Positions 1-61,971 of a DNA stretch of 64,000 nt are shown here, in pieces (the first letter of the stretch is position 1; every line of letters starts with the position of its first letter). Under the pieces are notes generated by a model. That model did no database searches. It had not been told where the DNA came from and saw nothing but the letters and a program-made list of their open reading frames with translations. Position numbers and translations under genes: made by a program. The DNA lies in assembly GCA_973895155.1 (NCBI GenBank), contig OZ316896.1:9011539-9075538 (forward strand), given 5' to 3'. This DNA comes from Marsupella aquatica. Its lineage: Eukaryota > Plantae > Marchantiophyta.

Positions 1-36
1 TCTTGTTTTCCTTGGTTAGAAGATTAAAGCAAATGT

Positions 37-153
37 TTGCCTCGCCCTCAGGGCGAGGCAACCTAGACTAGTCTCTCTAAGAATAATTCCCTAGTTCCGT
101 TTTAGTCAATTGCGGTTAGATGTAGAGGTTCGCCACGCCCTTGGGGCGAGGCG
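37..153. repeat. Two GC-rich palindromic hairpins, TGCCTCGCCC-TCA-GGGCGAGGCA (38-60) and CGCCACGCCC-TTG-GGGCGAGGCG (131-153)
   Basis: Directly visible inverted arms; the two copies are near-identical. Confidence 0.85.
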
Positions 154-238
154 GCTTAGCCTGTTTCAAACATAGGTATAAATTTTCTAACATATGCATT
201 GTACCCTGAAACTAATGTCAAGTCCATTGGATATGCAG

Positions 239-3200
239 GATTGGTTTGCCCTGGCAAAGGTTACAATGGGGAAGTCAAGCCTAAAGAGCATTTATTGGTT
301 ACTTTTTGCCGAAGATGAGCTCTTTGAATTATGGCGGAACGTGTGTGCAAAATGGTTGAGTGGGAAGCTCCAAGACAGGGCTGGTGGGTATGGAGGGCCA
401 AGACCCCCAAAATTGATCACTCCCGGTACCTTTCGATGCTTTGAAGGAGAGATTAGTAGCAAACAAATAATTGAGATCTTGAAGGATGTTGAAGAGGAGC
501 GTGTCTTGCTGAAGAAGGATATCACCAACAAATTAGAGCTTGTCGCAATGGGAGACTTGGCCCTTACAATCAAGATAATGTCCAAATTGAGAACAATCAT
601 TATTGGCTATTTCATGGAAAAGTATCGTGAGAAGTTTCCTGTTGGCACATCTTGGGAGTCTCTGGTGATATTGTTGCCTTCCTTGAAATCTGAGCTTGAG
701 ATGACAAAATTGAGGAGAGCAACGGGTGAGGTTTACCTCAACAATTCATTGAAGAAGAATGTGGTCAAGGAGAGTTTCCCACAAAGTCTGATGGTCAGAC
801 TAGATGGGTTGTATTGTAAAGAATTTGGTGGGATTGGTCGTTCTCGCACGGAGCCTTTCTTGACATTTTTTAGTGAGAATTTGATGAAGACGATCATGCC
901 GGAAATGCTACAAGAGCCTTCGCCTTTGTGTCCTCTTGCCATTGTTGACTTCAGTAGGCTCCGACAACATGTTTGGACCGATGCTGAAATTATTGCATTA
1001 CTGCAATACATTGTGGATCTTCCAAGAAATCCAACAATTGTTGTTGTCATGACTGTGCATCCGGGGCCACTTGCTGCAAACATTTTGAGTGCCCTTAGGA
1101 AATTGCAACATGAAAAGGGAATGGACATCCACGTCGACTACGGGAGCTATCGACGGAGTGATACACCAGTTCCAGAGGGCTTACTTTTCAGTTGTGGTAT
1201 GGAGGAGATAATCTTTGCAGGAATCACCACTGAGGAGAAATTTGATTGGAAGCAAGTGTTCAGGCCTGGATTTAATTGCCAATTTTCTTACAATTCGGCG
1301 ATCGACCCTGATTTCCAAGTGGAAGACAAGACGGAGAAGCGAGATAAGAATAAGAGTAAGACAAGTAAGGAGACAGAGACTGAGTCAACTTTGGCATTTC
1401 ACATTGGAGATTTCTTACGAAAGGCTCCCATGTTTGAGATGGTGGGAAGTAGAGGTGGCTTTGTGAATATTCACGCTAAGCCAAAATGTATGCTGCAGAG
1501 TATTATTGAATTTTTTTCGGCTGAAGGGGAGACTATACTTGACTTTTTCTCGGGAGGACAGGTTATGAAGGTGTCATTGTTGTGTTTCAGAGAATGCTTT
1601 GCGTATTCAGACACTGAGGATGAATATGATTTCACTCAGGCATATGGAAGGGTTCTCTGCGAGAAAGTTCCTTCCATAATGAGTGACCGGATGGGCGGTT
1701 CCAAATTTGGTAGAGCCCGCGATGGGGTTTCCGAGCATGTTGGTGCCAAAGAAGGCGTAGACCAGGGCGAAGATGATATTGAGGAAGGAGAATTGGGTCA
1801 CGACACAGACGACAGGGTCACCCAAAATTTGGATGAACGTGGAACACAAGTGGTAGGTATTCCCTACTTTGGTGTGGGGTTGGCTGATGTTGTGGGTCGA
1901 CCTGAGGGCGACCCACCAAGAAATCCCTTTGCCGGTGTAGAGAATTGGATGCACCAATTGGACCCAGATCTTACATCGTCCACATTGGACGCACATTGGA
2001 AGGCAACCGCAGATGGTCTAGGCAATATTGACGCAGTAGAATTGGGAGAAATGTCAGATATTGCGCTTGCAAAGGAGGATGATCGTCAAGTACCTGAGAC
2101 CGCTGCAAATGAAGAAGAGAAGGCAGGTGCTTCAAATCCTCCCCTGTCTCCTCTATATTGCTCATCAGAGACTAAATTGGTTTTTACAAGTGCTTCTACA
2201 GGAAGCCCCGTAGTATTATCATTTTCACAAAATTCTGGATCCGAGATCGGCAGGACTGGATATATGAAAACAGTCCGTCCTGCAACTCATTTTATATGGA
2301 GAAATGGACCAAAGGTTGGAATGATAGAATCACTAGACGATGCTCCAAAGATAATGGCAAAATCAGATTACAAAAAACTGAACTTGAGACTGAGCCCAGT
2401 TTTTGCACCCCCATCCTTTGAAGAGCAACTTCCCAGTGGTATCAATTCCGAGATACAGAGTGTTCTAGGTGATCAAACAATAGATGAATTTGGGCATTTT
2501 AGCATTGGAAATTATTAGCCCTTTCTTTGGTTCTTGGTATTTTAATGACAATCTAAGCTTTATCTTTGTAATAATATACTTTTTTACAGACCAAAGTTCC
2601 GTCGTAGAATCTCCTTCCTCAAAGGATTTTGTTGGCATTCCCTCGGAAAGCGTTGCTATGGAGGAAGGGTTTGACCCAGGTATACTTTGGATCTAAAAAA
2701 TGGTAATTGAATGTAATTAATGTTTTTCTAGGAGGGTCGCCCCAGGGTCGTTCCTCTCTACTTCAAATGCTATAACAAAGTTTGTTTGATTTCAAATTTT
2801 GAGAGTTTTCCTCCGTAGTAATTGTTTAAACTTTGAGTCGCATTGACTAAGGGCTTATGTTAATGTTTCCAGAATTCACTCCAATACTACACTCTCCGAT
2901 CCGGCGAAAGCTCTTGGTTCTTGACCTTAACAAGATTTGTTGGGATTGCATTAAGACCAGAAGCTCAGGACCATGGCGAAATCAGACAAGTTTACGTGGT
3001 GTGCACTGGGGGAGACGTGGAGGGTTTAATTTCATGTATGTGGAGCGCCCATACCTCCACGAATTTCTATATGCAGCTTTCATGGTTTTTGACGTCGCAA
3101 TTTGGACCTGTGCAAGGAGGCCAAAAACAATGGACTTAATGGAGTTGATTTTCACTAAGGAGGAGCGACAGAAGTTCAAGTTTGTCTTTACTCAAGAAGA

Positions 3201-3912
3201 TACCTTTGATAGTTGCATCCAAAGGCCAGATATAACAGATGGGAAGGCCAATTTACTTCTGAAGAATTTGCAAACCATTTGGGACCGTTTTCCAGAAAAA
3301 TATGATGCTTCTAATACAGTTCTTATTGATGATTCTCCATTGAAGGCATTTTTGAATTATGACGTGAATGGATTGTTTCCAAATCCATTTACTCACACAG
3401 CTTCAAATGACACTTTTTTGCCCAAGATATTATGGCCGTATCTTTGCAAATTGAGAAAGGCTTACTGCGTTCAACATTATATCACTATCAACAATCCAAA
3501 GTGGTCTGTTTTCAATTTATTAACAAGCAAGGAGGATCATGCTGCCATCTATGCTCTTTTGGAACAGAAGTGGGGAGATTGTCGTTGTATCCATAGGGAG
3601 TTTGGAACCATATTGGATGTGACTCCTGAAGAGATTCCTTGGGACGGAAAGAACGAGGTGCAACATTACCCACCACTGGAGACGTGGACCACGGATGAGA
3701 TCGAAGAAACTGCAAATGTAATACTTGGAGACAACTATTCTGGTCCTCATACACAAAATAGAAGGCATTTTATTTGGAAAGTTCTCAGAACTAGGGATCT
3801 CACCAATAAGTTTAAGAACCACCATGCGAGAGATACTTGCAACTGTGACATCCGCTATGATAAATCAGGAAGCAGACTTTCTTGTTCAAATGAGTTTTGT
3901 CTTGATCATTAG
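239..3912 (+). CDS. Spliced gene, 5'-incomplete; predicted exons 239-2468, 2590-2679, 2873-3912. Encodes a helical N-terminal region, a degenerate N4/N6 DNA methyltransferase-like domain, an acidic linker and an FCP1/NIF-like HAD phosphatase domain
   Basis: Acceptor atgcag|GAT at 238/239 with ctaat upstream. Phase-1 donor TAG|gtgatc at 2468 (alternative at 2438). Acceptor tttttacag|AC at 2589, donor CCAG|gtatac at 2679, branch tgactaa near 2844, acceptor tttccag|AA at 2872. All junctions keep the frame (3360 nt = 1119 aa + stop). MTase-like segment HAKPKCMLQSIIEFFSAEGETILDFFSGG; HAD motifs KLLVLDLN, ERPYLHEFL, VAIWTCA, NTVLIDDSP. Confidence 0.7.
2873..3912 (+). CDS. FCP1/SCP (NIF)-like HAD phosphatase domain exon, terminal exon of the gene above
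   Basis: RRKLLVLDLNKI (DxD replaced by DxN), RPYLHEFL, FDVAIWT, LLKNLQTIW, YDASNTVLIDDSPLKAFLN: the characteristic NIF-family motif order. Confidence 0.8.
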
Positions 3913-5097
3913 GAGATAGGGTTGCTCTAGTGCCTACCCTGAATTGTATATTCATATTATGTCTTGAAAGGATATGTTTTGAACATGTAGGATAAAGTAA
4001 ATAATTAGGATATATGCTTAGTGTGAGGCTCTCTCACTGGACTGGACAATTTAATAATTATATAGTGGGTCAATCTCATTTTGACCCTTGATTTATGACC
4101 ATCTATATTTTTTAATTTATAGATGGTCTGAGTGGTATTGGCCTCTGATTTTTGGACTAAATTAAATTTACTCTAATTTTTAAATTAATTAGAATATATG
4201 ATTTAAGTTATTATTAAACATTTGGGTGAAAAAAAACAAAATTTTGGGCGTTCAAAAGTGTATATTTGGGCTGAAAAAAATTAGCTTTTGGGAATGCTTT
4301 AATAGAAATTTGGCCTGAAAAAAAATAACTTTAGGGTTCATCTTATGGACTTTTAAAAGTACAGTTTTAATGAATATAGTGATCAAAACATCGTAACACA
4401 TTGCAAGGACAACCCGGCCTCCTGCCGTCTGCCCAACTACTGCCTCACTGGGGCAAGTGCTACACATCTACCTCACTACTCTGGCTTGATTCCCCCTTCT
4501 GGCTATGAGCTATCTTCCCTAAGCAAACACTAGACTGAGTCCCCCCCTCACTACTACGGGGCTCTCCCCCTAAATACCAAAAAACCCACCAAAGCACCCA
4601 TCACGGGGCCACAACGATGGTGGCTTACCCTAGCGGCGCTGCTAAACCCTTCACTAAGAAACCCCTAAACTAAAAGCATGCGGCACACACATGCTTCTAA
4701 AACCCTAAACCCTAAACTAACAATGGGGCCGACGGTGCCTTCGACGGTGCCCCAACATTACTCCGTGAACCGTGAAATTGCAAGGAACCCCACAATGGCC
4801 GAAACTAGGTGCCCTTCCACTTGCACTTCTGAGTTCAACCTTGGATAGCCCTCCTCCTCCTGATCATGAATCACTCAACCGCTCTTGAAACGGACATCGG
4901 ACGACCAAGTTATGGTCGTTTCAGTATCCCGTAAACCCAACTTCGTCGGGCCCTAACTTGCTCATCCTGGCTCCGTTTGAGGAGCGCTACCTCTTGTTGG
5001 AATCAGCTCCGTGAGCTTTTTCCAACAAGCCCGTGAGTGACCCCTCACAAAAAAGTTGGAAAGTCAAGGGCCGTACAACCACGTCCGTACGACCACT

Positions 5098-6840
5098 CTA
5101 ATCCTCCTCCTCGTCACTCATGGTGCCCTGGCTTGAGCCCCGTGAGTGGGCCTCCTCGTCACTCTCCACTGGAGTGAGTGCCACTTCACTCCTCTTCTTC
5201 TTGACCGGGGTAGTCTTTGTGCTAGTGCTCCCCTGCTTCCTCAAATTGGCCAAGGCCTGCCACGCCTTAATGTACCCCTCACCAATGGTGTCCTTCCATA
5301 AGGCCGCCTCTTCACCGGACCGCAACTCCAATGGTAAAACCTGCCCGGTGGCCATGGGAGTCCCAGGGGTGACAGATCGGGGTGGCATCCCCGTGTTGAC
5401 CTGAGCTTCTCGTAACGATTTACGTACCTCCCTGAGCTTCTTCTCTAAGCTCTTGCTCTTCTCTTGACTCTTCTTGGCTGCATCCAACAAGGGTCCATAC
5501 TTCCCACTGACTTCCTTCACCACCATCTCAATGGCCCTGGAGACCAAATCCGGGGAAAGTGTGGAGCTAGGTGTGCAGGGGCTCTTCCGTTTCCCCAGAC
5601 TCAAGGCCTCACTCCTCTTAGCCCTTGTCTCGAAGATCACCATTTGACCCCATAGTGTTCCCACCTGGGCTCTTAACTCCACCACTTCTCCAAAATTCTG
5701 CTTCTCTTTGGCCAATGCCTGTTTCAATACTCCAACCTCTTCCGCTTCCTTGGCCTTGGTGGACAAGGCTCCCTTCAAGTTGGAGATCTCTACGTGAGCT
5801 GCTTGGAGAAGTTTAACCTTCTCATGAATGGCCTCCTCCTTGGCCTTGATCACCTCCTTCATAGACAGGGCACTCTGCTCCAAAGTCTCTACTCTGGCGG
5901 TGGCCTGCTTGAGAGAATCTCTCAATGCGTGGACTAGCTTGAGTCCCTCATGGACTCCCTCCCGGAAATCCCGTAACTCCGCCAGGTAGACATCAGGAAT
6001 ATCGTAGACCAAGGGCTCCTCCGTATTTCCCACAAGTGATTCAAGCCACTCCATTGTGGAGTCCTCATCCTGGTTTTCTTCCTCTCTATTATCATCCCCA
6101 ACCGCCGACGATGATCCCTCCGTTAGTTTCCCCAAGATGGTAGTGGCAATACTCCTGATTTCCGTGGTAAGGGATGATCTAGTGTCTTCCTGTCCCGGGG
6201 AAACAATCCACCCTTCTGCTCTGGCTAGCAAAAATGACCCCATCAAATGTACAGCCCCACCTGGTTTCACACTCTCGGGATTGGCGTCCAATAGCTTCTT
6301 CAACGCATAGTACCACCATCCGTACACATGGGCTGGATAGTTCTTGATGTCCATAGCTACCACAAACTGCTCTCCATTCACCACCCCGGATTGCACGTTA
6401 CCAAGGACCCGTTGATGAACCTTGGCCAGAAATCCCTTGTGCTCAGCATCCTTGACGGCGGAAAGAGGAATGGAAGTAGTGGAGGTGGGATTAATCACCC
6501 AACCGGCCACCATTGTCAACGTGAGCTCTCCCCTTATGTTCCGAGGTGTGAATGAGAATTGCTGGTTCTCCAGGAACAGAAGCTTAGCTAACTCCACATG
6601 GGGCACTACCCGCTAGAGACATTCAAAGTAGATTCCTTCCGTACGTAACTCCATCCCGGCCTCAATGTTCCAACTCTTCCCCGAAGGGATTGTAATCTCC
6701 ACCTTCACGAACTCCGTGAGCCCGGTGGCTTGAAAAATATTCCTAAAATCCTCCATCACCTTGGTGGAGGTTTTGGGATAAATCGACGAAAAACCCTCCT
6801 ACTCACCGGTGTGGAACTTGCCACCAGCCCAGTACTCATC
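5098..6840 (-). pseudogene. Decayed intronless TE-accessory-like gene with a long coiled coil; 502-aa open remnant at 5098-6606
   Basis: The frame continues upstream of 6606 (YDEYWAGGKFHTGE*EGF...GIYFECL*RVVPHVEL) through in-frame TAG stops at 6613-6615 and 6799-6801. The C-terminal half is heptad-rich, followed by a low-complexity S/E/K tail. The family is not identified. Confidence 0.55.
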
Positions 6841-7699
6841 GTAGCTTTTCTCTCTTCTCTCTCTCTTGCAATCAATGTCTCCACGTAGTCACGTAAGCAG
6901 CCTTGTATCTCCGAACGCGTGCCGCACTAAACTCCGGGTAATCCAGCATCCATGCATCCAGAAATCAAATCCTCAATCACCAAATCCCGTCACCCGTAGC
7001 AATGTCAATTCCCTGGCCCAAAACGGCTCCCGTATCCCAATCAATCAATTACCCTCAATTCCCTCAGAAGCCACTCCGTGCTGCTGCCGCTAATGCTCGG
7101 AAGAATCATGCCAACAAGCCCCAACAATTGACCATGAGAAAGGGCTTCCAGAATAATTGCAAAATATGGAGAGAGCTTTCGGCAAGAGTTGAGAGAGAGC
7201 CCGAGTTTTTGCTTTCGGCAATGAGTTGGTCTTGCAAAAGAGAGGAAGTGAGAAAATAGGAAGGAAAAAAAGGGCACCCCGTGGCTCCTTTGATAATTTT
7301 CCCTCGTGGCTGCGCCTTGCTTATGCCCCGACAGACCCTTTAGGGGCTCCGCCTACTCGCGGGGCGGCCCTCCATCTCGCGCCCCACGGCTCGTGGGCTC
7401 CTCCGCCATATTACACCGGGGCCAAGAAAAACTGCCGGGGTCTCTAAATATTAATGGGTGGTATCCCCTTAAGATGCCTAATTTTCTTCTCCCACAACGA
7501 CAAGACCCAAGAGAGCAAAGGGTCAATTAAAAAAATAGTTCCTCCCGGGTTCAAATAGCTCCGGCCCTCCAGAGCAACATGAACACACACCGGGATGATT
7601 AACTTTTAAGAAATTAAAAAAAATTGAAAAACTATTGTGTATATTGGCTTATTTATTTACATGCATCTTGCCAATAACTCCTAATGGTGACCTTTCAAG

Positions 7700-8177
7700 A
7701 CGGGGACCCCGTCACAAGGAGAGGAAAGTGTTCAAGGCCGACTTTGATCTACGATCATTACGGAGATAAACCGGCGACTGGTAAGCACAAAGAGAAAACA
7801 CCCAATAAAAAATGAATTCAACCATCTCATGCACACATTAAGCACTAATAAACTCCGTGTTGAAAACAAATGCAGGTGTCATGAAGGAGATTCTTAGGTA
7901 CATGGCAGTTCCGTTCGAGGAAGACCAGCTCACTTACAAGGACGGGATGCGTGAGTACATCCAAGTCACAAAGGGAGCTCGTCTAGAGCAACTGACCAGA
8001 CTGAGGCATGATTTCAAGATGCCACTTGATATGTTGGTAGGGCTGACACATCAGCAATCCCAGTCCCTGATCGACAGGCTGAGGAGGAGCAGCGACCAGG
8101 GGCTACTATCTGACATCCCTGCCCAAACAACAACGGAACAACCCACCACATCCAAGCGGAAATTCAACGCGATGTGA
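7700..8177 (+). CDS. 3' fragment of a spliced gene of unknown function, exons 7700-7780 and 7876-8177
   Basis: cctttcaag|AC acceptor, ACTG|gtaagc donor, cactaat branch and aatgcag|GT acceptor. The joined frame reads ...RPTLIYDHYGDKPATGVMKEILRYMAVPF...KRKFNAM*. No upstream exon was found. Confidence 0.45.
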
Positions 8178-10228
8178 CAGTTGTTTCTGTGATGTAGTAC
8201 AAGTTTCATTTTTCAGAACAATGTGGTGTATCATGCAAAAACAAATGACGAGTCCCAATAAAGATACCCATTGTCGGAAACATATTTATCTATATCAATA
8301 ATTATCTACTTTTTAACACATTTTTGTATCAATAACTATGCAATTTTCAATCTCAATTGAATAAAACAGATGGGGGTCCATGAACTAATTATATGTCCGG
8401 TCGGTAATCACACATCAAAATGTGGCGATATACGGTGTACACTCATTGAATTAAAGAAAATAATGAGATTTATCATGGTATGGAGGAATGCCGTACACCC
8501 AATCGTACACCATATATGTCATATTTGCCGTTATATGCCTGGTTTGAGGAACATCTTTAGAGTCTTTCAGAGATGCTTTGAACTGTCTTTAGAGTTGCTG
8601 AGTATGGCACAGTAGTGCTTGTCGATGGCAGACAACTGTCTGGATACCTAGCTTGAAATATTGTCATAGAAGAACAGGACAAGATCAACTTCAAGGTCAA
8701 GGCTGTTGTCAATTTAATGTAATTTTGAGGCACTTGGAGATAACAAATTGTTGGACTCCATTTCTTAATTGTTGAGCTACATACTCCATGGTGATTTCAA
8801 TTAAACAAGATGTCATTCAATTTGCTAGGCAGTGAAAGAATTTAAATTGCAGCATTGTGGATGAAGTCAATTGGCTGTTCTGTGAATGAAATACAATTAG
8901 ATCACTCGTGGATGAATTGAAATTGCTATGCTGTGGTTTGAATTCAGTGTCATTTCCTACTTTCTACTGGTTTCTATTTTGTACAAAGCTGATTGTCATT
9001 CAGCTCATTCGATTTGCCCACACGAGCTCATGCAATTTGTGGACAGAAGCTAGTGTGCCCCCCAAGTACAATTAGAGAAGTTTACATTTTGGTCTTAAGT
9101 TACCATAAAGAAAGGAAATCTGTTCAACAGCAGAATGGTTTTCAGACGCCAAAAGGATATTTTGTCCACTTTGTTTAAGAGCATTATTGACCTGGATCCT
9201 CGTGGACAGCGGCAGTTAAACCCAACTATGGAAGGGTTAGCTTGCCGAATGAGTGGCTGCCATTTGTTAACATTCAAGAGTTAAGCTAGCCCATATATGA
9301 TTAAGGTGCGAATTAAAACAATTTGGGAACAGGTTAATATGAGTTTGACTAATTTTGGGTGGTGTAAGGTTGTGTAAAATAGCTAAGAACACTTGGGGAA
9401 GGTTAATAAATGTTGTTCACTAATGATATTTAAAATCTCAAAGTCTTCATTTTTGAGAACATGCCTTTTAGGCAATCTTTTCAACTGTGGTTAACCATGT
9501 CCCGACTGTAGTTTCGGCCACAATGTTTTGGGGTCAGTAGCCTGGATTACAAATGAGAAGTACAAAGATTGAGACGCCATACTAGTGTCAACTAAACCAG
9601 ACCCCAAACGTTGAGAATCTTTTGCTGCACCGTCCCTTGTGCAAATTCAGTCATCGGGTGGCCATCAAAAGGGCTATCCCATCCACCCTCCAGCCACAAG
9701 CCATCCCCGTCCCTGCACATGACATCTGGCTCACCTGCTGACAAGACTAGTACCCCCTCTCTTCCTCTCCAGGCGGTGGATTCATTTGCACTTTCTATCC
9801 AGAACTCTTTGTTTGCTGCCTTTGTGCAACCTCAAAATTGAGGCCCACAGCAGTTCTCGTCACTTCGCCTGCTGCATTCCTAGATTTCAGGAGCAGCTCT
9901 TCGGAAGTTGGGATTTCGCCAGTTCGTTGGATTTTCACTGGTGACTGAGGGTTTTTCTTCAAAGGCAAGATGAGTCTATTGCTCTTCAGTTTACTTGAGA
10001 ACTGGATTCGTCATCGCTCTTGCCAAATTCCTAAGTTTCAGGTTTGGGACTCGCTAGTTTGATTTTTGGCCACGAAAAGTGATGCAGTGTCTCGCCCGCC
10101 TTACACTTGATCTGGAGACGAAGAATTGCGCTGAGGTAGTCGCTCGGCCTCACATTTGGGAGTTTGGAAGTTTGTTGGAGACAGGGATCTAGAGAGAGAG
10201 GGAGAGACGGGAGCTCTGTTTTCTCTGA

Positions 10229-27392: not shown

Positions 27393-30122
27393 TGTATAGC
27401 AATACGGGAAAACTTGCGAGACGATCTGTCATTCTGCCCCTGTCTCTATCTTTATCAAACCCCAATCTATAACACCTTTCATTGCACACACATCTCGCAA
27501 ATTGGTTATGAAGCCACTACCAGAGAGTCACTGGGAAAGGAAATAAACCAGGACGTAGGCTCTACTCTAGCAGTGCAAATTGGTGATCAAAACAATCCCA
27601 AGAGGGAATTCAACAGTTCCTACGGTTCATTGAATGAGGAATCAATCTGCAGATTCACATTAGTCTATAATCCCTAGCATCAGGTCTCGCAAATTAGTGA
27701 TGACAATCACATCAGAAAGCTCAACCGCTCTAATTGCGGTGTGACCAACAAGGTAAAAGTTCTACAAATTGACATCCCTGAGTGTCTCTCTACTCTAGCC
27801 TTGCAGATTGGCGATGAGAAAGACATTAAAGCTGGAAAGAGACTGTCACCGTTCTTACTGTTCTTGAGCGACAAAGAGGAACGGTATCTTTGAACTGACC
27901 TTACCTAATCTTTCCGTAGTCTCGTGGGCTGTTAGCAGTCAGGCCATAGTCTGTTCCCTTCCCATGAAATTGCATTGTTCGTTCTATCTAAAATCCAGCA
28001 CGAATTGGGGAGCAATGCCTTGCCAATCTCCCCGATGTATCCTTCCCGGTGAAAGAAACTCGCGCACTAGCATCCTGTGAAGACTAGAGAAGGGAACTCA
28101 CATCAGCAATGGAGGGGAACTTCATGTTCAACAGGTGAACGAAACCTCGCCGAGTCCCGTCCCATCCCAAGCTCTGCTGCACGGATGCCAGTCTAACACC
28201 CGTAAACAACCGTACTATTTAGTTGTACGGTGCTCAAGATTTCAGTGCGCCTCAGAAAATCTTCCCTGAACTCCAAAATCATCAAGCCAAACCAAACTTC
28301 TCGGCTACGTCTTTAGCCTTCCTCGTCCACAAGCAATACTTTCAATGTTGGGCTCAATGGCAGTACAATAGCGTCTCCATGCCGCACATCTTGCTCATAA
28401 TCACCCTCAATTACAGGCAATCATAAATTGAAGGCTGCTCTCCTCGCTAAACTACCGCGGCTGTAGGTAGCACCAAGGGAGACTGGATACTGCTCATGCT
28501 TACAACTCAAGTATTGTACAGTTCCACTGTATCAGATTCTATTCACACCATTCTTCTCTGTTTAGAAGATCTTGCGTGTTTGCATCCCTTGGCTTTTGCA
28601 TTTGGGTCTCCATCTTCTTTCGCTCCCAAGCGGTTCTTCACACGTCTGATTGCCACCGAGAGAGAATAGAGCAGGCAGAGTCGCCAGGCCCAGGGCTTGT
28701 GGTAGCCTCCGATTTAGATTGATCGAACCTTCTTTCTTTGGATTGATTGGTGTCGTTGGTGATACGGGTGCCCCACAGTATGCGTTGGCATTGTACAGTT
28801 ATGTACAATCACTTGTATAGACTAACCTCGTACGTTCTAGTTTTGGACTGTCGTGAGCCCGGTTCTCCAAAGTCTGTACTACACTTCTCGAGTCAGATAG
28901 TTAGCTGTACCAGTCTGCACCAGTCTGGGGCAGGAGGGCACGACATCGGTGTGGAATTCTTTAATTATTTTTTCTTCCTTTGTTTGGACCTGGTGACGAC
29001 ACGCATACAAGAATTTAATTTTCAGCAATCAGGAGCTCGTGTGCATGTGCAACGTCAGGTGCAGGTTGTGGTCAGTAATTTACGAGCAGAAGAGTGTTGT
29101 GCGACTCAATCAAGTTTTCGGCTCTCCACACCGCCTTTCGACATTCGACGGCCTGCCCCGTGGAAAGTCGGCCACAGACCACAGTCGGTGTACTTAATTA
29201 ACGAGAATCCTTCTCTCTTGTAGGCTGTGCCCATCTGGATCAAGTTTTGGGTTATCCTCGAGGCTCACCTCGTCTTTCCTGTGATTGTTGTCCGAAGGCA
29301 AGTAGTTTGAATTTCGACGCTCTTCAGCTTCATCGTCTGAAATATCGAGGAACTTAAGAGTAAGCACGAGTTTCCTGTCCTTCCTACGAGCGTTCCTGTG
29401 ATTATTTTCCATGTGTGAAAATGTCTCCCAGTTGGGATCTTGATACTGAGTCGTTCTAAGACGGCAAAACCTTGGAATATTGTCAACGTTCAGTGTTGCC
29501 ACAATTTCAATCCTGATCTTCCCTTGCTGCTGGTCACTCGAGATGGATTAGGTTTTTCCTTCCTGGGCTCACAAGGGACTGGCTATGTAGCATAAGATAA
29601 ACCTTAAGAAATCCGTAGAAAGTGAACAGGATGTGGTCCGCTCTCAGCACCGTACCAATCAGGAGTCTCTTGGAAGGAAAGCGCCAAGCAGACTTTGACA
29701 GTACGTAACACTTGGCCAAGAAGGTGCATCAATCATGCCATACAAATTGAAAATTGTTACTAGCTAAACGGGTAGAGATGGTCCTAAGGATCCCAAACCT
29801 CAGCCTGCAGCAATTAGTGAAATAGAGCTACATTGCAGAGGAAAGGAAGGCTTCTCATCCTCTTTCTCCTGAAAATTAATAAATTGGATGTCATTGCACA
29901 TCATCCTATAACTTGGATCTGAATTTGAACAACGGAGTGAGCTTGGGATAGTGCTGTCGTTTTCTTCTCAGTGGAGTGATGACACCCTTTATCTGAGAAC
30001 TATGAAATGAATTTCTATTGTAATGACTAGTAATACGTTGGAAAGGTGAAAATGCTCCCCAACTATACGACACTTTACCCAACATCGATCAGCGGACGCC
30101 CTTCGATTTGGACGGCGTGACC

Positions 30123-30471
30123 GATCCTTTGCCATGTCAAGGAAACGACTATTGACTGTGACTGATCAGACGTATTTCTAAGACTGCCAGATCCTCTGCC
30201 ATATCAAGGAAACGACTACGAACTGTAATTGGTCAGAGGTATTTCTAAGTGCCAGATCCTCTGCCATATCAAAGAAACGACTACGGACTGTGATTGATCA
30301 GAGGTATTTCTAAGTGCCAGATCCTCTGCCATATCAAGGAAACGACTATGGACTGTGATTGATCAGAGGTATTTCTGAGGCTCTCAGATACTCTGCCGTC
30401 TCAAGGAAACAACTACGTACTGTGACTGACCAGAGGTATTTCTAAGGCTCACAGATCCTGTGCCATTTCAA
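30123..30471. repeat. Tandem repeat, ~5.3 copies of a 65-67 bp unit
   Basis: Unit gatcctctgccatatcaaggaaacgactacggactgtgattgatcagaggtatttctaagtgcca starts at 30123, 30190, 30255, 30320, 30387 and 30454. Confidence 0.92.
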
Positions 30472-33141
30472 ACATTTAGGGTACTGATGAATCCCTGGAC
30501 CTTAGAAGCTACAATTTGTCAAGTTCTGTACAAAACCCGTTGCAAATTACCTTTAGACTTGCTAATTTACTTTCTCCATCTAGTTATCCACTGTGTCACT
30601 AATCGAATATCGTCACCTCACGAGATCTGGAGAGCTATCTATGTCATTCCGGTTCCTGGAAAGAGCTTTTTTGGTTAATTCTCTAGATTTATGGCCCATG
30701 GCTGGTCGTGACAATTTGAGACTTGAGGAGTCGCTTTCCATGTTCAAGATGTAGTTTGGAACGAACTGGAGCACAGCATGCACTTAGATGTTCCAAAGGC
30801 CAAGAAAAATACAAAACCAGTACAAGATGTTTTTCTTCCTAGGATTGAAGTCAGAGTCATCTGAGACGACCACATCCATTGAAATATCAGTGGCACTAGA
30901 ATTCCATACACTACTTGCCACCACAGATGTCGAAGTTTCTCCACAAAAACGTCCAGCCAGTACTGGTGTGGTTGAATTGGAGAGACAGGAGCTCAAATAA
31001 ACTTTTTCAATGGAGTTGAGCTCCCACTTCCTCATATTCAATGAGCGTTAATTGCAACAAAGAAATTACGCCCCTGTAGCAGTCCTCATCGCTGACAGAT
31101 TCGCGAGTGATAAGTAACTAGAATACCTAGAACTTCGGCGGCATTTTCAGGTCTGAATCTAAACCAGATTTTCCTTCACAGACAAACAATAATCCAAAAA
31201 CTGAGACACCTCTGACAAAAATGTTCAGATTTTTAGTCTTTAAAAGAGCATTTTGCTTCTCTTCAGAAGCTACCAATACAATACACTCCGAAGGCTAAGC
31301 ACCTCTCATTAAGTGCTCATATTTTGAGCACGTTGTACCAAGGCTATGGGTTATAACTGATGGGCTTCATTCGAAATTTTCCAGTCTCACGGGGTTACAA
31401 GCCATTTTGTTGAGGATTTTCGTGGAGTTGCCATGTAGGACTGAGAATGTTAGCTTCATCCTGAGGATGGGCCTGTCTGAATTCTGTCTTGTCTCTCTCA
31501 CTGGGAACAGAATCTTATTGCTCGGTTGAGTATGGAATTGATACGAGAGGATCATGAGCACGCAAAAGAAGGATAGGACTTGCCCATGAGATTCTCCTTG
31601 GACGTCCAGAATGCTGCCCAAATTGTGGTGCTGGTGACTTGCTTTGATTTTATAGAGCTTTTTGATTGAGCCAGACTTGTCCACTGCTTTGATCAGGAAC
31701 ATTTTCAAAATTCAGAGAAAGAAAATTGCAAATTTTAAATCTCAAGGAAATTCTACAAATTTTTAAGTCTTCCTTTTAATTGCAAGAATATGCATAACCA
31801 AGGAGAGAATTTCAAATTTAAGGAACAGGGTGGCCACCATGAATTAAAATAAATGGAGAGAGTATTCCTCTGTCTTCAAGACAGCTAATCATTCTTAGTG
31901 CTTTACACCAAGCCTGTTCATATAAAAATCTCATTTCCTGCCTTGTTATTGCTCATTCCTGTGATGAATAGTGCACTCACCATAAAAGATGGAGCCGAAG
32001 CCCATTGCTAGTGAAACTGAATGTGCACACTTTATAACAAGAGCTAAGGTTAACACATAGCTCCTATAGGGCAAGTTTGTGCTTTGATTGCATACCATAG
32101 TTAGCAAGAAATTAAACTTTGATACAAAGGTGACAGCCAGTTGGCAATGATTCCCAAGGATCTAAGTTCCCCACAAAGTTGATTAGAGACAGAAGGGAAA
32201 GCACACTAGAGTCAATGCATCCCTTCATTGTGTATTACGGTAACAAGGAATGCCATATGCACAATGGCAGGAATAGTACTAGTGCATCCACAGCAGGGCT
32301 AACTTTTGGGCTTTACCTGATGGATTGTGGATTGAGACTTATTACCTATTTTCTAAATAAAACTTTCCCATTGATGGTTGCATTGGACTGGATGTGTAAT
32401 TATTTATATCGCACTGCCACTTAGCAAAAAGCACCAAACGTGGCAGGATTCCAAAAGCAAGAGACCCAATAGAGTGGAGAAAACAAGGAAAAACCACCCC
32501 CAAAAAACCAAACTGCCTTCTCTAGAAAAGCAAGAACACACTACCAAGCCACAAACTGAAACACCTGCTTCTAGCTGCATAACAAGAGGGAAAGAAAAGT
32601 GTATTCTTAGGTGGGCCCTATAGAGATTATGCACCTAGCCATCCAGCCAAAACCAATTCTAATGGGCCTCGTCCAAATTTATCATGTGAATCTTGGTGAA
32701 ACCCCAAACAGTGAATTTCAATTTTTAAATCTTGAATGGAGGGGACTCCATCTTTAGGGGTCACACACTTTATGTGTATCTCAACTTATTATGCAACTAT
32801 CGTGTCCGGTTCAAATGCTGTTATGGCCAGAGTGCCTACCTGTAGGCGATGATAGATTGATAGATGCAATATAAAATTTGGAGCCCCAAGCCAGTGCGTG
32901 CCTTTTGGTTTCCCTTAAATACATTTTTATGTGGATTCGAGTACCAACCTCAATTACTACAGGGTGTGTACAGCCCACAGTCAGTCTAGACAGTAGCCTA
33001 GGGAATAAATTTTGATTTCCATCTACTAGTTAGATAAAATTATGTACATTTCTCGTTAATCAGAATAAAATGAACTATTTCCCTTATGGAGTTTCTCTGG
33101 AACCGTCAACATGAATAGAATGAAGAGTCCACCGCACACGC

Positions 33142-33160: not shown

Positions 33161-34716
33161 AAGAAACAAAAGCATCTTATTAATTGTGCATCAAAATATG
33201 ACAATAGACAACATCACTCCAAACCTTGATAAATAGAATTATTCTCTTTTAGGTAATGAGTGTACACAATCTATTGACTTATTTTTATGAAAAACAACCT
33301 TAGGTCCTTCCAATTGCCACTGTCCACCTACTATGACAGGACCCTATAGAGCATGTCAAAGTTCACCCATAACACTTTGTTACAGTTTTATTTTTTGGAT
33401 ATACCATCCTTATGGGGTACATATTTTGGTAATCCATAACAATTCCTGGTGTTGTATGTCCTGAGCCATAAGCGCGTAACTCCGTAAGTGCATTGTATGT
33501 CCTGAACAGTAACAACAGATACAAGTGTGCTATGCCCTTATGACTATGGACGGACCCTATGGCTATAGCTGTTTGGTTTTCAAAAAACAAGTCAATACAG
33601 TGTTCATTCATGATTTAAACAGACGTTAAAAGATACCTTTTCCAAATTTTATTAAGAACATTATTAACTAATTTTAGATACCCTAGATTTTACTCTCATA
33701 ACAGTGGCGATTTAAAGACGCGAGTTTTAGACAAACCAGTGATATGCTCCCGAAATCCTTAGCGGTTCCAATTATGCAATTATAATTCTGTTTTGCTGTA
33801 ATGATGATCACCACCGAAAGAATCGCGCGGATTCGTCGGTCACAATCATCAGTCGAGGATGCAACTTTCACTGGCAGCCCAGGAATTGAGGCGATGGTCT
33901 AATACTCTAATGAACAAGAAAATTATGCGATCGATAACATTCGTCTCATGCAGTCCCGATGAGTACGTGGTTACAAAGCATACGGACGTCCTCACTGTGC
34001 TTTTCAAGCGAAGCTTCATGTGTGATGATTTGCTTGGGCGCAAAAAGTTACAGCAAGCGCATGTTTGAGACTCGTCGATAGCATTGCTGTGCCTGCCGTG
34101 GCTGAGTACGAGCCCTCTTTGGAGCTAATCCTACTCCTCTACAGTAGGTGCGGAATTGAAACTCTCTCTCAGCTGCTGTTGCTGATGAATCTGAAAGCGT
34201 CGAAGGATTTGGAAAGTGGTACGAGGAATGCGAACTCCATCTTGAGAGGCACTAACTGTATGCAACACACTTGTCGAGGCCGAAGCTTCTCCTCATCAGT
34301 CTGGGTTCAGTCTAGCTTGCAATTCAGGTGACGCATACATTGGATCATTCTCTCGAGCAGAGGAGAGGTTTGGCGACTAGTCGGACAAGATTCCAGGGAA
34401 GGTCGAGTTTGTTGTGCTCAACAGGTCTCGTGTGTTTGGGAGGAATTGGTGTCGATATATCGGGGTCCAGCTTTATCTGCGGGTTTTGAATTCCCGAACG
34501 CAGTGGAGTGATCGAGTAGGGCAGAGGGATTGAAGCATTGCGGAGGTCGAATGGAGTGTTAAAAGGTAGGCGTGGGGATTGTTCGAGGTTTACGAGGACG
34601 CCAGGGACGAAGATGAGGGAATGATGTTGCTATCGCATTCGCCCTCCACCTGCTTTTGAAAGGGAAGAGTCAGTTTTGTGGTTGGGGATTAAAGGGGTTA
34701 TGATTGCAGCGCGACG

Positions 34717-37451
34717 ATGAGTGAACTGTGGAACGACGACTCCACGGACGATGGAGCTCTCACGGCTCACTTCGTGCCCGATGCTTGGAAGGCTTCGTGG
34801 GATTTCACCCAAATTCTGCCGGTGCCATCGCAAGCCTCAAAACGAGCAGCCGAGAAATTGGTCCGAGCAGAACGAGTCCAACAAGGCATCGGATGGCTGC
34901 TGCTCGCTCAACTCATCGTCACCTTGGGATTCATGCGAGTCATGTCCCGGACTGTTTTCTGGATTACGTGGGCGATCTTCATGCTAGAGGTGGCAGTGAA
35001 GCTCGCCCGCAGGTGGGGTCTAGCCTGTTGCTTCCAAGACGTGCCATGCGCTTACGTTCCTCTCCACCAAGGAGCGGCAAAACACTTCATCCAATTATTT
35101 TGGCAGGGGCTCGGCGCCGTCACTGCGACGCAATTAGGATTGGCTGTGGCGTACCTCTATGCCATAACTTACGAGTGGGTTCGGTGGAGTGATGGTAAGC
35201 CACCCTACAACGAACCAAATTCTCCATACAGCACTAAGCTGATGCTGGAGATGATCACTGGAGCAGGATTCCTCCTGCTTTTGTGCTGTGCCTGCAATTT
35301 GTTTGTGCTACGCAAATATGACATTGCCATGAAGCTCGGTAGGAGCTCAAGCAAGCAGGGCAAGCCCCGGAGTGGTGAGCTGGATCGTTCTCTGTGTTTG
35401 ACATGGTGGGTGCACATCGCCAGACATCGCCATCTAACTGCAGCCGAGGCCAGGTCTCAGCCTGGGATTTGTGGGCTGCCTGGACAATGGTACGAGTCTG
35501 TGGCTCAGCTGAAGAAGATCTTGGAGCAGAGTACGGTCGTTGGCCATGGCGATGATGTGCAGCTTGTGTGGTTGTCGCAGGAGATGGCGATGCGCGCCTT
35601 GCTCAGCGTCGCAATCCAAGGGCAGTCGGAGTCGTGCCGCCTTCTGTTACAGGACGATGGATTCAGGTTGCTCCTCTTGGTGCTGTCGGAGGGCAAGCCC
35701 GAGAGTAGCCGGGGTCTGGCAGCTGCTGCAATCGCGGAGCTCGCTGATCATGAATGCATCGAGAGCTTGGGAGTGAAGCTCGCCGCAGCAGTGTTTCCCC
35801 TCAAGAGTCTGGCGAGGTCGCATGTCGTGGAGTTGAAGGAGATGGCGTTGGGCGCTCTTCTTAACCTTTCGCTGAACAACGAGCAGCGCAGCCACGTCGT
35901 TGCGGAAATACTGTCTTCCGGTGACGATGAATACCTTTCCTCGCATGGAGGCAATGTGATGGACATGGTGGTAGCTAACGATTCTCCGAATACATTCGTG
36001 GATAATCTCCTCCATTGCGTTCGACGAGGACCGACGACCACCTGTCAAGTGCTGGCTGCAAGCCTACTTGTTCGATTGGCTCCCAACCAGCGAGTTAGAG
36101 ACTCAATTCTGCGGGACTTCCCACTGAGAGCTCGACATGGCAGTAACCTGAGCAGTAACCTGGAGCTATTCGTGAGAATACTACGGATGGGGCTCACGGA
36201 TGATGTTCAGGCTAGCATCGCAGGATTGCTGTGGGAGCTAGCGTACTGGGACGCGAAAGCAATAGGGGATGATCCTCAAGGGGACAGCTGCATCGAAGCC
36301 CTTGTTGCGGCCTTGTGGGGTGACACTCAGGTTGCTGCTGCTGCAGCGGGAGCGCTTGCCAGCTTGGCGTTTAACAGCACCGAGAGGAAGCGGAGGATTG
36401 TCGAGATGGAGGGGAGCTTGGAAGGGCTCACGAGGCTACTGAGGGATCACGCGAGTTCCAAGATGAGGCATGCGGAAAACCAAGACTCATTGGCCAAGGT
36501 ATAATTCTACTGAAGCCTTGCGCAGCCGTAGCGTTGAATGCGGAGTGGCTCACACTTCCACTCATTGGGAATGGTGTTTCGGTGGAATGTAGCGTGTGTA
36601 CAGGAGCTTGTTTCTTTATCTAACAACTTTAAGTTCTGGTTACTTGAGTTTTCTCTCTCATACATATCTGGCTTTGGGTCACATGGAGTAACAGCGATTC
36701 ACCTGTTAGTTCGAGATGCGCTCTAATCTAGACAGCCTTCGACTGCTGGACGTCTGCAATCTCGGATGGATTTTGCAGGTTCTCGTAGTAGTGAGATCCA
36801 TTTGTGCGAAAGGATAGTGTCTTCGTTATATGATTTGAATCACGAGATTTGGCAGATTGTTCACTTTGCAGAGAGATTCCATCGTAAACTTACGAATGGG
36901 TTCTAATTATTTCCGTAAACGATGGCCGTTTTGATGTGTCATAGGTGGAAGCCCAAGGGCAAGCGCAGGCAGCGAGGGCATTGCGGATTCTGGCGGCTAG
37001 TAATGAGGAGAATCAGACTCTGATCGTCCATGCCGGGGCAATTGCTGAGATAGTGAAGTTACTGCAGAAGGGCAATTCTTATCTGCACATGCAGGCAGCT
37101 GCGACTCTTGATGCCATTTCTCATAGGAACAGGCGAATCCAAGACTTCATAGGGACGAACTACCCCGAAGTCTTCCCACGTTTGACTCGACTGTTGGATC
37201 CAGTTCGGTTCGACATTCTCGATGTGTTGGTTGAGAAGCATGAGCAGCATCATATTTTGGAAATGGTTCTCGAAAAGGTTGCCTTGGCCTTGAGAAGCAT
37301 TGCAGAAGGGCACAGGGGAAACCGGGAGAGATTCCTGGAGGCTGGAGCCAAAGAACGACTGCAGTCCATTCTGATACGTCACAGGGAAAGGGAAACTCGA
37401 GGCAACAAGCTCTGCAACATAATGGAGAAAGCTTTGGGCACTTTATTATAA
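34717..37451 (+). CDS. Multi-pass transmembrane + ARM-repeat protein, paralog A; exons 34717-36498 and 36945-37451 (~762 aa)
   Basis: About four hydrophobic N-terminal segments; ARM-like helices (EMALGALLNLS, AAAAAGALASLA, AQAARALRILA, GAIAEIVKLL). Phase-0 intron AAG|gtataa...catag|GTG. Confidence 0.85.
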
Positions 37452-40400: not shown

Positions 40401-42260
40401 CGATAGTTCAGCATTTTACTTTTCAGAAGCATCGACTTGTCGTGGATCCCAATTCCTCCTCTCTCTCTTGCAGAGACGACCTTCCGCGCTTCTCTCTGTT
40501 GAAGGCTATGAAGGCTATGAACCGTTTGTAACATAAGGCATGTGACACTGCTGTAATAAGACCCTCCATTGATCGCTTTGACCTTTGACTATTGGGTGAG
40601 GGTTCGTACCGTTTGATCGGACAGCCTTCTCCCTGCCTGAGGGCACAAAAGGATAAGACACTACCAAAGTGATCCACTTTACCACAAATTGGGAAATTTG
40701 TGCATAGCTTTTTGAGAAGGCCACTGTAGTGTGTTGGGTAGGCCCTCAACGTGGCATTTGGGTAGCGATGCGAGCTGCAGAACCGACAACTTGGAGCTAG
40801 ATTAATTCCATCGACGAGTCAAATTGTGGGTCACGATGAGATCCTGGATGTGGCCTTAACACGTAGAGGAGGCGAGCGAGAGCTCGAGCCAGCACTACTG
40901 GGTATGGCAACACGAGGTAGTTTTACTGCCCGTCGACCATACAATAATCTTCACAAGCTCATCGCAATCATGATTCTCCTGATGGGCAACATGTGAATTT
41001 CTTTCCACCGTACTTCCGTATGCCGGCTACCATCAAAACGGAACTGTAGCAAAAAGGCTTTCGAAAGTGGATGGGTAAGGGAGAAGGTGGAGGGACAACA
41101 GCCAAGGGAGTAGTGAGTGTGGGCGCTGTGGGCCTTTGTGGTGGCGGTATAAAACCCTCCCGGTGACCGATGTTTCCCTTTTCGGCAGCTTCGGTGTCTT
41201 GCACAGCATGCCTCTTCTGTGCCCCGTCCACGAAAGCTAGTTTCCCCGATTTGAGCGTGAGCTGAGTTGGGGCAATTAATGTTGATGTCCCTCTCAGTCT
41301 CCGGAAAGGTCCAAGGACTGATTTCTGTTTGGTAACTAGCAGCTGTGGGTGGATCAGGCCGCGAAGACAGAGAGCGCCACTCCGTCGCGATTGATTTCCC
41401 GTTTGTTTCGGCGGTGAATGGGAAGGACTTGATATTTATGGCCCCCAATATTAGCAAATCTGGAACTTTAACAAGCCGGTGTCACAGTGTGTCTGCGGAG
41501 GCTTTTGGATGAATGATTGATTGGATTGCATTGAATCGACGAGCATTTTGTGCGCCACTGGCCAAGCTTGCAATCTACCACTGTAGACTTGACTCAGGGC
41601 AGACCAAACTTTTCATGTGGTTTGTTGGTTGGGAAAGACAGAGAGCTCTATCCTCCTCTGTCGAAAGATTTGCCCCGAATTGCACATATCCGAACAATTC
41701 CACTACCAGCTTTTCCGTCTACGGAGCTCGGAGCTCGTGCAGTTGAAACAAAGTGAAGAACTCTCCGGCTTTCCTGTCTAGCCCGGTTAATTGGCTTGCC
41801 GCCCACCTTTGAGGGAGAACTCGGCACACTGACAGGACAGTCACGATGAATGCAACATCGATTGCTCTGAACTATGAAGTATTACAGCACGCACGAGAGA
41901 AAAGCATCTGGAGAGCACCTTAACCTGAAGAGTTCTCGAACATTGTAGTGACAAGCGAGAGGATGGCTGCTGTCTTGAAGAATTGATTGTACAGTGATTG
42001 TTGAATGTATTCATCCACTCGATCTATCGATCGATTTTGTGAATTCCTTTGCCGGTAGGAGGTTTTTCAGAGAGTTGGAAACTGGAACGAAAGAAAGGTG
42101 GTTCGTTGCAGCGGACGTACGCCAGGAGCGGTTGACGGAACAGGAGGGGCCGGTGCAGCATAGCTTGATACGAGTGAAGAGAAAGCTCGCCAAAATAGCG
42201 AGGGGATATTCTCTCTCGAGTTCAAGTCCTTCGGAAGTAGCATGTGGCAAGGAGTTTGCA

Positions 42261-45200: not shown

Positions 45201-45664
45201 CCCTGGCCTACAAGAACAAATCCATCCAGGACCTGATCGGGCTGTACTACCGAGAAGCCTTCACGGGGCTCGCAGAGCTTCTCAACCCAGCGCGCATGGA
45301 TATCTCCTCCGACCTTCTCGAGGTCGTTCTCGAGAAGGCTGCGCTGGCTGTGCGAAGCCTTGCAGAGGACCACACCCCGAACGCCGAGAAGCTGTTGGGG
45401 AGCGGCGCTACTGATCAGTTGGCGGCCATCTTAGAACGGGATAAAGAATACAAATTCTCGCACAGCAAAGTCTGCGATGTCGTTATCGAAGCTCTCGCGA
45501 GCACCGGGGGAGCCTCCAGAAGAACGTCCGACTCAGTCTCATCCTCGAGAAACTCGACCTCCGGGCTCTCATTGTCTGGCCACCAATTGGCCGTCGCCCT
45601 GCGAGACTACGCGCCGCTCCATTCCATCTCTCAGGACTTGAACATCATACACTACAGCAACTAA
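42261..45664 (+). CDS. Multi-pass transmembrane + ARM-repeat protein, paralog B; exons ~42261-44063 and 45032-45664 (~811 aa; start uncertain, frame open from 41994)
   Basis: Shares VPCAYV, RSGxLDRxLCLTWWxH and QPGxCGLxGQWxESV with paralog A, plus the same K|V intron position. Junction AAG|gtctgg...acgcag|GTG. Confidence 0.85.
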
Positions 45665-48369: not shown

Positions 48370-49400
48370 TGAAGGTGGATATTTATTTGGCTGTAATGTG
48401 TTGGGGGGCAACAAACGGCGTTTAGGGGTCTTCATCCTTCTGTGAGAAATTGGGTGTAAAGAATTTCTCTTAGATTTGAACCTTTATTGAGAATGAAAAG
48501 GGGTTTTAAATGAATGTGGAAAGGAGAGGCTCAGGCTTTGCCATGGATATTTGGCTGTAATGTGTTTTGGGGCAGCAAAAGAGGTTCCGTGTTCAGGGGT
48601 CTTCCTTCTTAGAGAAATTAAGTTTAAAGAATCTTCTCTTAGATGTAAGGATCTTCTTTGAGAGAAATTACGTGTAAAGAATCCTCTCTTAGATTTGGAT
48701 ATTAACTGAGAATGAAATGAGGGAGATTAGGTGACTGTAGAGAATCTTTTCTTATATTTGGATCTTTATTGCGAATGAAATTGGGTCTAGAAACTGACAG
48801 AATAGAGAATTCTCTTAGTTTTGGATCTTCATATTTTATGAACAGTAAAAACTGAAGTATTGTTATCGCTGAGATGTACAAAATCTTCACTAAGATTTGG
48901 ATTTCACAATTGCGAGAGTGAAGTGGAGTGTAGATAGTCTTCTCGAAGATTTGGATCTTCAGCTAGAATGAAAAGTTTCCATCAGTGACAGTTATCAGTT
49001 CACCGGAAGAATATTCTGAGATTTGGATGTTCAGCTGAGAATCAAAAGTTTCCGTCTGTAACATCTATCAGTTCATCCGGAGGATCTTCTGAGATTTGGA
49101 TGTGTAGCTGAGAATGAAAAAGTTATTCATCAGTTCATCTGCGGATAAACATCTCTATGATTTGGATCGTTGTCTGAGTAAGAAAAGTTCTGTCAAAGAC
49201 ACCTAAGATTTGGCTCTTTCTGAGAATGAACAGTTCCTATCAGTGACATCTAAGATTGGACCTTCATCTGAGAAGAAAAAGCTTCTATCAGTGACATCTA
49301 TCATATCATCTGAGAACTGAAAGCTTTCTCTTCTATCAGTGACATCTATCAGATCATCTGAGAACTGAAAGCTTTCACTTCTATCAGTGACATCTATTAG
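48370..49400. repeat. Degenerate satellite-like array downstream of FAAH
   Basis: Recurrent agatttggat(c/g)tt...gagaatgaaa and ctatcagtgacatcta motifs with ~45-70 bp spacing; duplicated atttggctgtaatgtgtt..gggc near 48386 and 48550. Confidence 0.75.
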
Positions 49401-59964: not shown

Positions 59965-60113
59965 TTATTAAGAACAACCCAAGGTCAGAATATTATTCTC
60001 GTACTACTTTCAATCTCAAAAACATGCATGCACCTGAGTAAACACACCCGGATCTTTAGAAGCTTCTAATAGTTTCCATGAATATTATTTTTAGGTTTCA
60101 CAAGGCTTCCAAG

Positions 60114-61949: not shown

Positions 61950-61971
61950 TTTATCTAGTTATGAGCAAAGG

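Follow-up and report, generated by a model that had tools for sequence, protein, structure and literature searches.

Two long open reading frames (ORFs), at 191-2518 and 2851-3912 of the unspliced sequence, lie one behind the other at the left end of a 64,000-nucleotide stretch from the liverwort Marsupella aquatica (GCA_973895155.1, contig OZ316896.1, positions 9,011,539 to 9,075,538 of the forward strand; hereafter "the window"). The first, which we refer to as "ORF1", is related to N4/N6 DNA methyltransferases, and the second encodes a phosphatase-like domain of the NIF/FCP1 type. Does this locus specify one fused protein or two products, are their catalytic motifs intact, and what kind of DNA carries them? 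A first-pass annotation had spliced both frames into a single plant protein of more than 1,100 amino acids, borne by a mobile element and coupling the reading or writing of DNA modifications to a phosphatase module. The explanation that we favor, with moderate confidence, is a young, multicopy liverwort element with a gene for a dead methyltransferase fold that ends at 2518, followed by a separately translated phosphatase-like gene.

Where ORF1 ends

The three exons of the proposed fusion (239-2468, 2590-2679, and 2873-3912) have the AG/GT ends claimed for them, and their joined frame is stop-free over 1,119 amino acids. The first donor site, at 2469, fares less well. The proposed intron that follows it carries coding constraint: it encodes a family-conserved terminal motif at 2483-2500 and then a stop codon. 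We searched with a profile restricted to the columns that precede the donor, and it found 31 unique relatives with the C-terminal domain. In 29 of them, the motif E[YFH]G[ST] lies downstream of the donor position, and 28 of these 29 reach a stop codon 2-21 residues past the motif, as does the unspliced window frame. The two relatives that lack the motif end with the profile match itself or five residues later. Some of the 31 are close to one another; among 23, the median pairwise identity is 24%. A profile of 23 relatives, selected on the terminal motif, scores the unspliced frame at 119 bits and the spliced frame at 102 bits. For most relatives, the sequence is a frame extended to its stop codon and not a spliced model; the annotated Calypogeia model P0002, however, terminates in the terminal motif region as well. 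P0174, a single 1,009-amino-acid frame, ends four residues past the motif.

The donor can also be considered directly. Because 8 of 23 relatives have no glycine at the donor codon, and are thus unable to hold GT there, the GT at 2469 is not family-wide. No other GT dinucleotide occurs between 2471 and the stop, and the residues past the terminal motif in relatives are unlike those that a GTAAGT donor would encode. Since four of the six GT dinucleotides in 2399-2469 have the required phase, an in-frame join is little above chance. Nine contig joints are listed from public sequencing runs, and none equals either proposed intron; the contigs behave as genomic DNA and are uninformative on splicing.

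Because the proposed first intron encodes the conserved terminal motif, and relatives stop just after it, the main product likely ends at 2518. A single fused protein is doubtful in the window copy, as the splice would remove a motif that is kept at such low sequence identity. Sequence comparison indicates that the gene probably has two products, i.e., ORF1 ending at 2518 and a separate NIF product. The NIF protein is likely either translated on its own from ATG 2658 in exon 2, which would yield 353 amino acids, or the product of a minor splice form. Translation from ATG 2484 without splicing, in a frame open into exon 2, was rejected as likely due to chance; the sequence is 72% AT and intron-like. 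On the window sequence, loss of the base at 2492 would move ORF1 to the reading frame that stays open into exon 2.

A methyltransferase fold without its catalytic motifs

A profile search with ORF1 gave 220 matches with E≤0.001 among 50%-identity representatives, the best 150 of which were listed. An AlphaFold2 model built with 98 sequences has a mean predicted local distance difference test score (pLDDT) of 78, and a single-sequence fold has a pLDDT of 39. In the model, residues ~1-200 form a helical domain and 204-486 a Rossmann-type domain; a disordered linker then leads to a C-terminal domain (641-755) that is predicted with confidence. VIA-align places residues 204-486 on CcrM (6pbd) with Z=18.1 and a root-mean-square deviation of 3.6 over 216 aligned residues. 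The corresponding Z scores are 16.5 for MboII, 16.0 for RsrI, 15.9 for PvuII, and 15.2 for rotifer N4CMT, with unrelated folds at 5.4 or below. Foldseek and VIA-align agree in ranking beta-class enzymes at the top (Foldseek E=1.5e-7), and the catalytic strand precedes motif I, which is the permuted beta-class order first proposed from the sequence. The motifs quoted in that proposal are located at 932-961, 1472-1486, 1535-1561, and 1589-1612.

At the sequence level, the ORF1 family profile matches M.RsrI with E=1e-8. The Pfam check suggested by the first-pass annotation gave only a weak match: PF01555 scores 16.8 bits on the window protein (E=0.007), below the gathering cut-off of 26.7, and 3 of 40 scanned relatives reach the gathering score. 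The structure search that had been suggested alongside it did return a beta-class Rossmann fold for the predicted model. On the strength of the model, 845-1693 adopts a permuted beta-class N4/N6 DNA methyltransferase fold. The helical domain has no library match, and neither it nor the C-terminal domain has a fold match, although neither was folded alone, so this is a weak negative.

All named relatives of ORF1 come from liverworts, namely Calypogeia fissa (46% identical) and Riccia sorocarpa. Among viral structures, the best match is to a phage protein labelled ParB/Sulfiredoxin (A0A6J5MMM5, E=8e-8). Among the matches listed from a metagenome scan with ORF1, only prokaryotic methyltransferases were seen, at at least seven loci, and tblastn of P0174 against phages and of P0142 against plasmids gave no match.

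Motif I of these enzymes, with the consensus FxGxG, binds S-adenosylmethionine (SAM), and the prolines and aromatic residue of motif IV, (D/N/S)PP(Y/F/W), orient the target base. Neither motif is intact in the ORF1 family. Motif IV is found in 0 of 56 aligned stretches, the commonest states being DFSR (15), as in the window, and DLTH (8); the aspartate is retained in 51. FxGxG is likewise absent from all 52 pattern matches for motif I, each of which reads D-x-[FY]-S-G (DFFSGGQ in the window), given that the pattern used collects D-x-[FY]-[SCA]-G sites only. Alignment to M.RsrI opens a one-residue gap at motif I. On sequence grounds, the ORF1 methyltransferase is very likely catalytically dead. 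Because both catalytic motifs are degenerate across the family, the "writing" of DNA marks suggested earlier is unlikely, and the phosphatase motif is degenerate too.

The NIF domain and its fused relatives

The NIF domain predicted in the last exon is clear, with PF03031 matching at 61.6 bits (E=9.5e-17; cut-off 21.8) and a match to UBLCP1 (3shq, E=1e-9). The catalytic motif of FCP1/SCP HAD phosphatases is DxDx(T/V). In the window, DLNKI stands at 2923 where DxDxT is expected, and the first (nucleophile) aspartate and DDSP are retained. The second aspartate is absent in all eight relatives that were read, with N, R, or E at this variable position, and some also lack DD. The nearest named NIF proteins outside the family carry DVNG or DLNG. 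Because DxN also occurs in an angiosperm and in viral NIF proteins, this state may be inherited, and residual phosphatase activity is possible. Viral contigs (L008-L027) encode compact NIF proteins of 160-176 amino acids in which DLNG replaces DxDxT (7 of 20 loci read). The residues at the 2679/2873 junction resemble P-[ED]-F upstream of NIF in P0154 and P0065, a weak likeness of three residues. Complex prediction pairing the C-terminal domain and the NIF protein was uninformative, with a score of 0.00.

The fused architecture claimed for the window is present elsewhere: a NIF domain lies in the same gene model as the methyltransferase-like domain in 3 of 40 scanned relatives (P0076 from Riccia sorocarpa, P0124, and P0154), all in a distant clade; it is in the window copy that the fusion is doubtful. 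The P0065 and P0111 models run into the start of NIF, and P0154 and P0111 have a conserved linker in common. A tree was built from 29 family members, P0124 and P0139 not among them; in it, the four NIF-fused proteins placed group together (100/100) in a clade that contains no C-terminal-domain member, whereas the window sequence groups with members that have this domain. Only P0076 and P0065 are confirmed as R. sorocarpa among the fused models. Given that a separate clade, R. sorocarpa included, has fused models, the pairing of the two domains is, as judged from these models, old.

The repeat and its upstream part

The stretch is present in five public runs from three coded organisms, none recorded as RNA. 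Contig depth in X1 is 455-515 over 1-4235 and 10.6-15.2 for the unique flank contigs from 8456 on, a ratio of ~38 (30-49) that serves as a proxy for near-identical copies. The unique X1 flank contigs are identical to the window, and the 1-4235 contigs differ at 23 of 3,424 bases (0.7%). An X5 contig tracks the repeat to 4383 and then diverges, and at ~4392 the right side of the repeat adjoins another, higher-copy repeat. Eight named relatives from R. sorocarpa are distributed over five sequences that differ in length. By the depth proxy, copy number is raised in coding and non-coding parts alike, which upholds the repetitive side of the mobile-element claim; transposase and termini, its other side, were not seen in the window. 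We consider the repeat very probably a mobile element and, given its near-identical copies, likely a young one.

The earlier expectation that upstream exons lie outside the window holds. P0002 and P0044 extend upstream through the same QDW, and P0026 starts just before it, which supports the acceptor at 238. In the intron ahead of this acceptor, contig joints running from 64 to 1 in three runs reveal a tandem unit, and its hairpin (37-61) has z=-4.8, with 0 of 200 shuffles equally stable. A Helitron 3' end formed by this hairpin and CTAG (37-71) was rejected, as this unit occurs in tandem and, in relatives, the gene extends further upstream. That upstream part holds a domain with SG[QA]HS, which we presume to resemble ParB/DndB, although the resemblance was not significant when tested. 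In hhalign against ParB, P=0.15, with 1 of 20 shuffles scoring higher, and local and global modes were both non-significant; the test took 23 of 26 ParB loci and 6 of 8 N-terminal slices. The upstream domain has no Pfam, NCBIfam, or PHROG match.

Features of the repeat are listed in Table 1. Further right, a second repeat at 4392-7416 (X1 bin depth ~1,500-4,000) has an antisense coiled-coil frame, 5098-6612(-), with no Pfam match above cut-off, and is likely a retrotransposon-related accessory sequence. A small two-exon gene at 7684-8177 (exons 7684-7780 and 7876-8177; ~132 amino acids, basic C-terminal end) has no family match; its DNA is at raised X1 depth (~185-470), and the gene could be another one belonging to the same element, on the far side of an insertion. 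A short dispersed inverted repeat (74%) occurs at 8413-8490, at the boundary to unique DNA (~8456), and at 33212-33289. Inverted arms of 116 nt (83%), ~1.5 kb apart at 60111-61951, suggest a non-autonomous DNA transposon. Tandem arrays occupy 30117-30513 (five copies of ~65 nt) and 48384-49377 (degenerate, 48-73 nt). The neighboring genes are ordinary and plant-type, encoding an S1-domain protein, an F-box protein, and ARM repeats; the ARM-repeat genes at 34693-37451 and 41979-45664 are paralogs with hydrophobic N-terminal regions, 7.5 kb apart.

Table 1. Coordinates of the repeat, its genes, and their domains in the window
Feature	Positions	Strand	Description and basis
Right-hand part of multicopy repeat	1..4385	+	Left end beyond window, right boundary approximate; X1 contig depth
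Intron 5' of large exon	1..238	+	Tandem unit of ~66 bp with GC-rich hairpin 37-61; acceptor AG 237-238
ORF1 terminal exon, best-supported form	239..2518	+	Helical domain, predicted dead beta-class methyltransferase fold, acidic linker, conserved C-terminal domain, stop 2516-2518
All-helical domain, family-conserved	239..835	+	FRCFEG motif at 431-448; pLDDT 72-97
Permuted beta-class N4/N6 DNA methyltransferase fold, predicted dead	845..1693	+	Structure and profile matches
Motif IV-position strand	932..961	+	Asp retained, PPY gone (DFSR)
Degenerate SAM-binding motif I	1535..1561	+	DFFSGG, one residue short of FxGxG
Acidic linker, poorly conserved, predicted disordered	1694..2143	+	pLDDT <50; alignment of relatives
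Beta-rich conserved C-terminal domain, family unassigned	2156..2500	+	Spans proposed donor 2469; block pLDDT 67-97
Family terminal motif	2483..2500	+	DEFGHF in window, E[YFH]G[ST] in relatives; within proposed intron 1
Likely exon 5' of NIF exon	2590..2679	+	In-frame ATG 2658 in good context; sequence
NIF/FCP1-type HAD domain (~2908-3462), then helical extension	2873..3912	+	PF03031; DLNKI replaces DxDxT
Cys/His tail C-x14-C-x4-C-x2-C/H, predicted zinc site	3838..3909	+	Pattern in window and 4/6 aligned relatives

Weighing the alternatives

Several observations weigh against a young mobile element with two separately translated genes. The donor at 2469 (AG|GTGA) is plausible as a splice site and keeps the phase of exon 2, which is open. 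In one X5 contig, a single base is missing at 2492, in the terminal motif region; DEFG survives this deletion, but the later residues change. Fused methyltransferase-NIF models do exist in the other clade. Contig depth is only a proxy for copy number, with X1 possibly the source sample, and neither a transposase nor terminal repeats or a target-site duplication could be seen in the window, beyond which the left end lies. Some of these observations suit a fusion that is real as an alternative isoform, i.e., one transcription unit giving both products by way of 2469 or a different donor of equal phase within the large exon. Its splice sites are canonical and its join in frame, the fused and near-fused models described above pair the two domains, and the P0154 NIF groups, weakly (79/78), with window-type NIFs. 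We nonetheless regard this isoform as rather unlikely in the window: its splice would drop the conserved terminal motif, and the fused models that resemble it sit in a different clade and look unreliable in detail, P0076 having no NIF motif I and P0154 having an intron-like hydrophobic stretch. The part of the R. sorocarpa annotation report that covers gene models describes an EvidenceModeler merge of long-read cDNA with ab initio predictions (PMC11735767).

Much less probable is an active ORF1, i.e., a methyltransferase that works with non-canonical motifs and marks the DNA or RNA of the element. The fold is complete, the near-constant motif IV aspartate and the uniform motif I variant imply a pocket under constraint, and eukaryotic permuted clades with unusual strand-4 motifs are known (PMC4738411, in part). 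Against this, the prolines and aromatic residue of motif IV are lost and their positions variable, and the active plant and rotifer enzymes retain SPPY, as described in parts of the reports on them (10.1101/2021.02.12.428880, PMC8885841). It is similarly improbable that the genes are an amplified host family or the remnant of an endogenous large DNA virus rather than a transposon. The lack of a visible transposase would fit this origin, as would the DLNG NIF relatives in viral contigs (20 loci), one of three such virus records also having a beta-class methyltransferase match. However, introns and the 3' flank are amplified together with <1% divergence, viral NIFs form their own clade at ~30-36% identity, and the ORF1 profile finds no relative in viral contigs, nor was an ORF1 relative found near viral NIF genes. 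The two-gene mobile element thus remains the reading that we carry forward.

Comparison with known systems

ORF1 shares its permuted fold and motif order with beta-class N4C/N6A methyltransferases (CcrM, M.RsrI, M.MboII, M.PvuII; PF01555; Z of 15-18), as well as sequence similarity around motif I. It differs from them in having no (D/N/S)PP(Y/F/W), a shortened FxGxG, and a sub-threshold Pfam score, and it adds helical and C-terminal domains in an intron-containing eukaryotic repeat. The closest eukaryotic parallels are Marchantia MpDN4MT1a/b, compared by description only, and rotifer N4CMT, the structural match mentioned above, both beta-class enzymes of bacterial origin. Unlike ORF1, these are described in parts of the reports as active, low-copy host genes with SPPY (10.1101/2021.02.12.428880, PMC8885841). 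The Dam-like methyltransferase of DIRS1 is also transposon-borne, and section 9 of PMC4738411 describes this amino-methyltransferase domain as likely inactive; that domain is related to PCIF1 (group 2) and lies within the polyprotein of a retroelement, whereas ORF1 has a beta-class fold and a NIF partner. Phage ParB/Sulfiredoxin-methyltransferase fusions include the top viral structure match to ORF1 (A0A6J5MMM5), but the corresponding upstream domain of the window family lies outside the window.

The phosphatase-like product is closest to FCP1/SCP/UBLCP1 (PF03031) and the DxN subclass of plants and viruses, with an above-threshold score and with the nucleophile aspartate and DDSP retained; it differs in having no DxDx(T/V) and in its added Cys/His tail. 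VANC of the VANDAL transposons is a functional analogy only, an element-encoded accessory protein that acts on the element's non-coding tandem repeats, as given in part of PMC10398659. A search of the mainly open-access literature found no description of the ORF1 family or of a methyltransferase-like/NIF pairing.

Possible function and significance

We suggest that ORF1 would act as a non-catalytic DNA-binding protein that uses a methyltransferase fold of bacterial or phage descent, and that it would recognize the element's own DNA, e.g., the intronic hairpin repeats. The NIF product would likely bind phosphoserine peptides, such as those of the Pol II tail, without efficient hydrolysis. Together, the two proteins would aid transcription or transposition of the element despite host silencing, in the manner of VANC; the likely inactive DIRS1 domain offers a second analogy. 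On these terms, an anti-silencing role is a tentative proposal, and on balance we would not yet bet on it. More doubtful still is the wider scenario of an undescribed, old, and still mobile liverwort family in which a phage-type ParB-methyltransferase would have become a dead DNA reader, joined by a phosphatase decoy for the Pol II tail, the two being fused, split, or alternatively spliced depending on the lineage and countering silencing.

In the literature that we found, only two characterized eukaryotic beta-class N4/N6 DNA methyltransferases are described, both active host genes. The ORF1 family, with its 220 matches (the weakest uninspected), is instead found in repeats and retains the fold although catalysis has probably been lost in all its members, a combination that points to a reader or decoy role. 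Mobile elements are thus a possible route by which bacterial methyltransferases entered land plants, and PF01555 matches in liverwort annotations need not indicate the writing of N4-methylcytosine (4mC) or N6-methyladenine (6mA).

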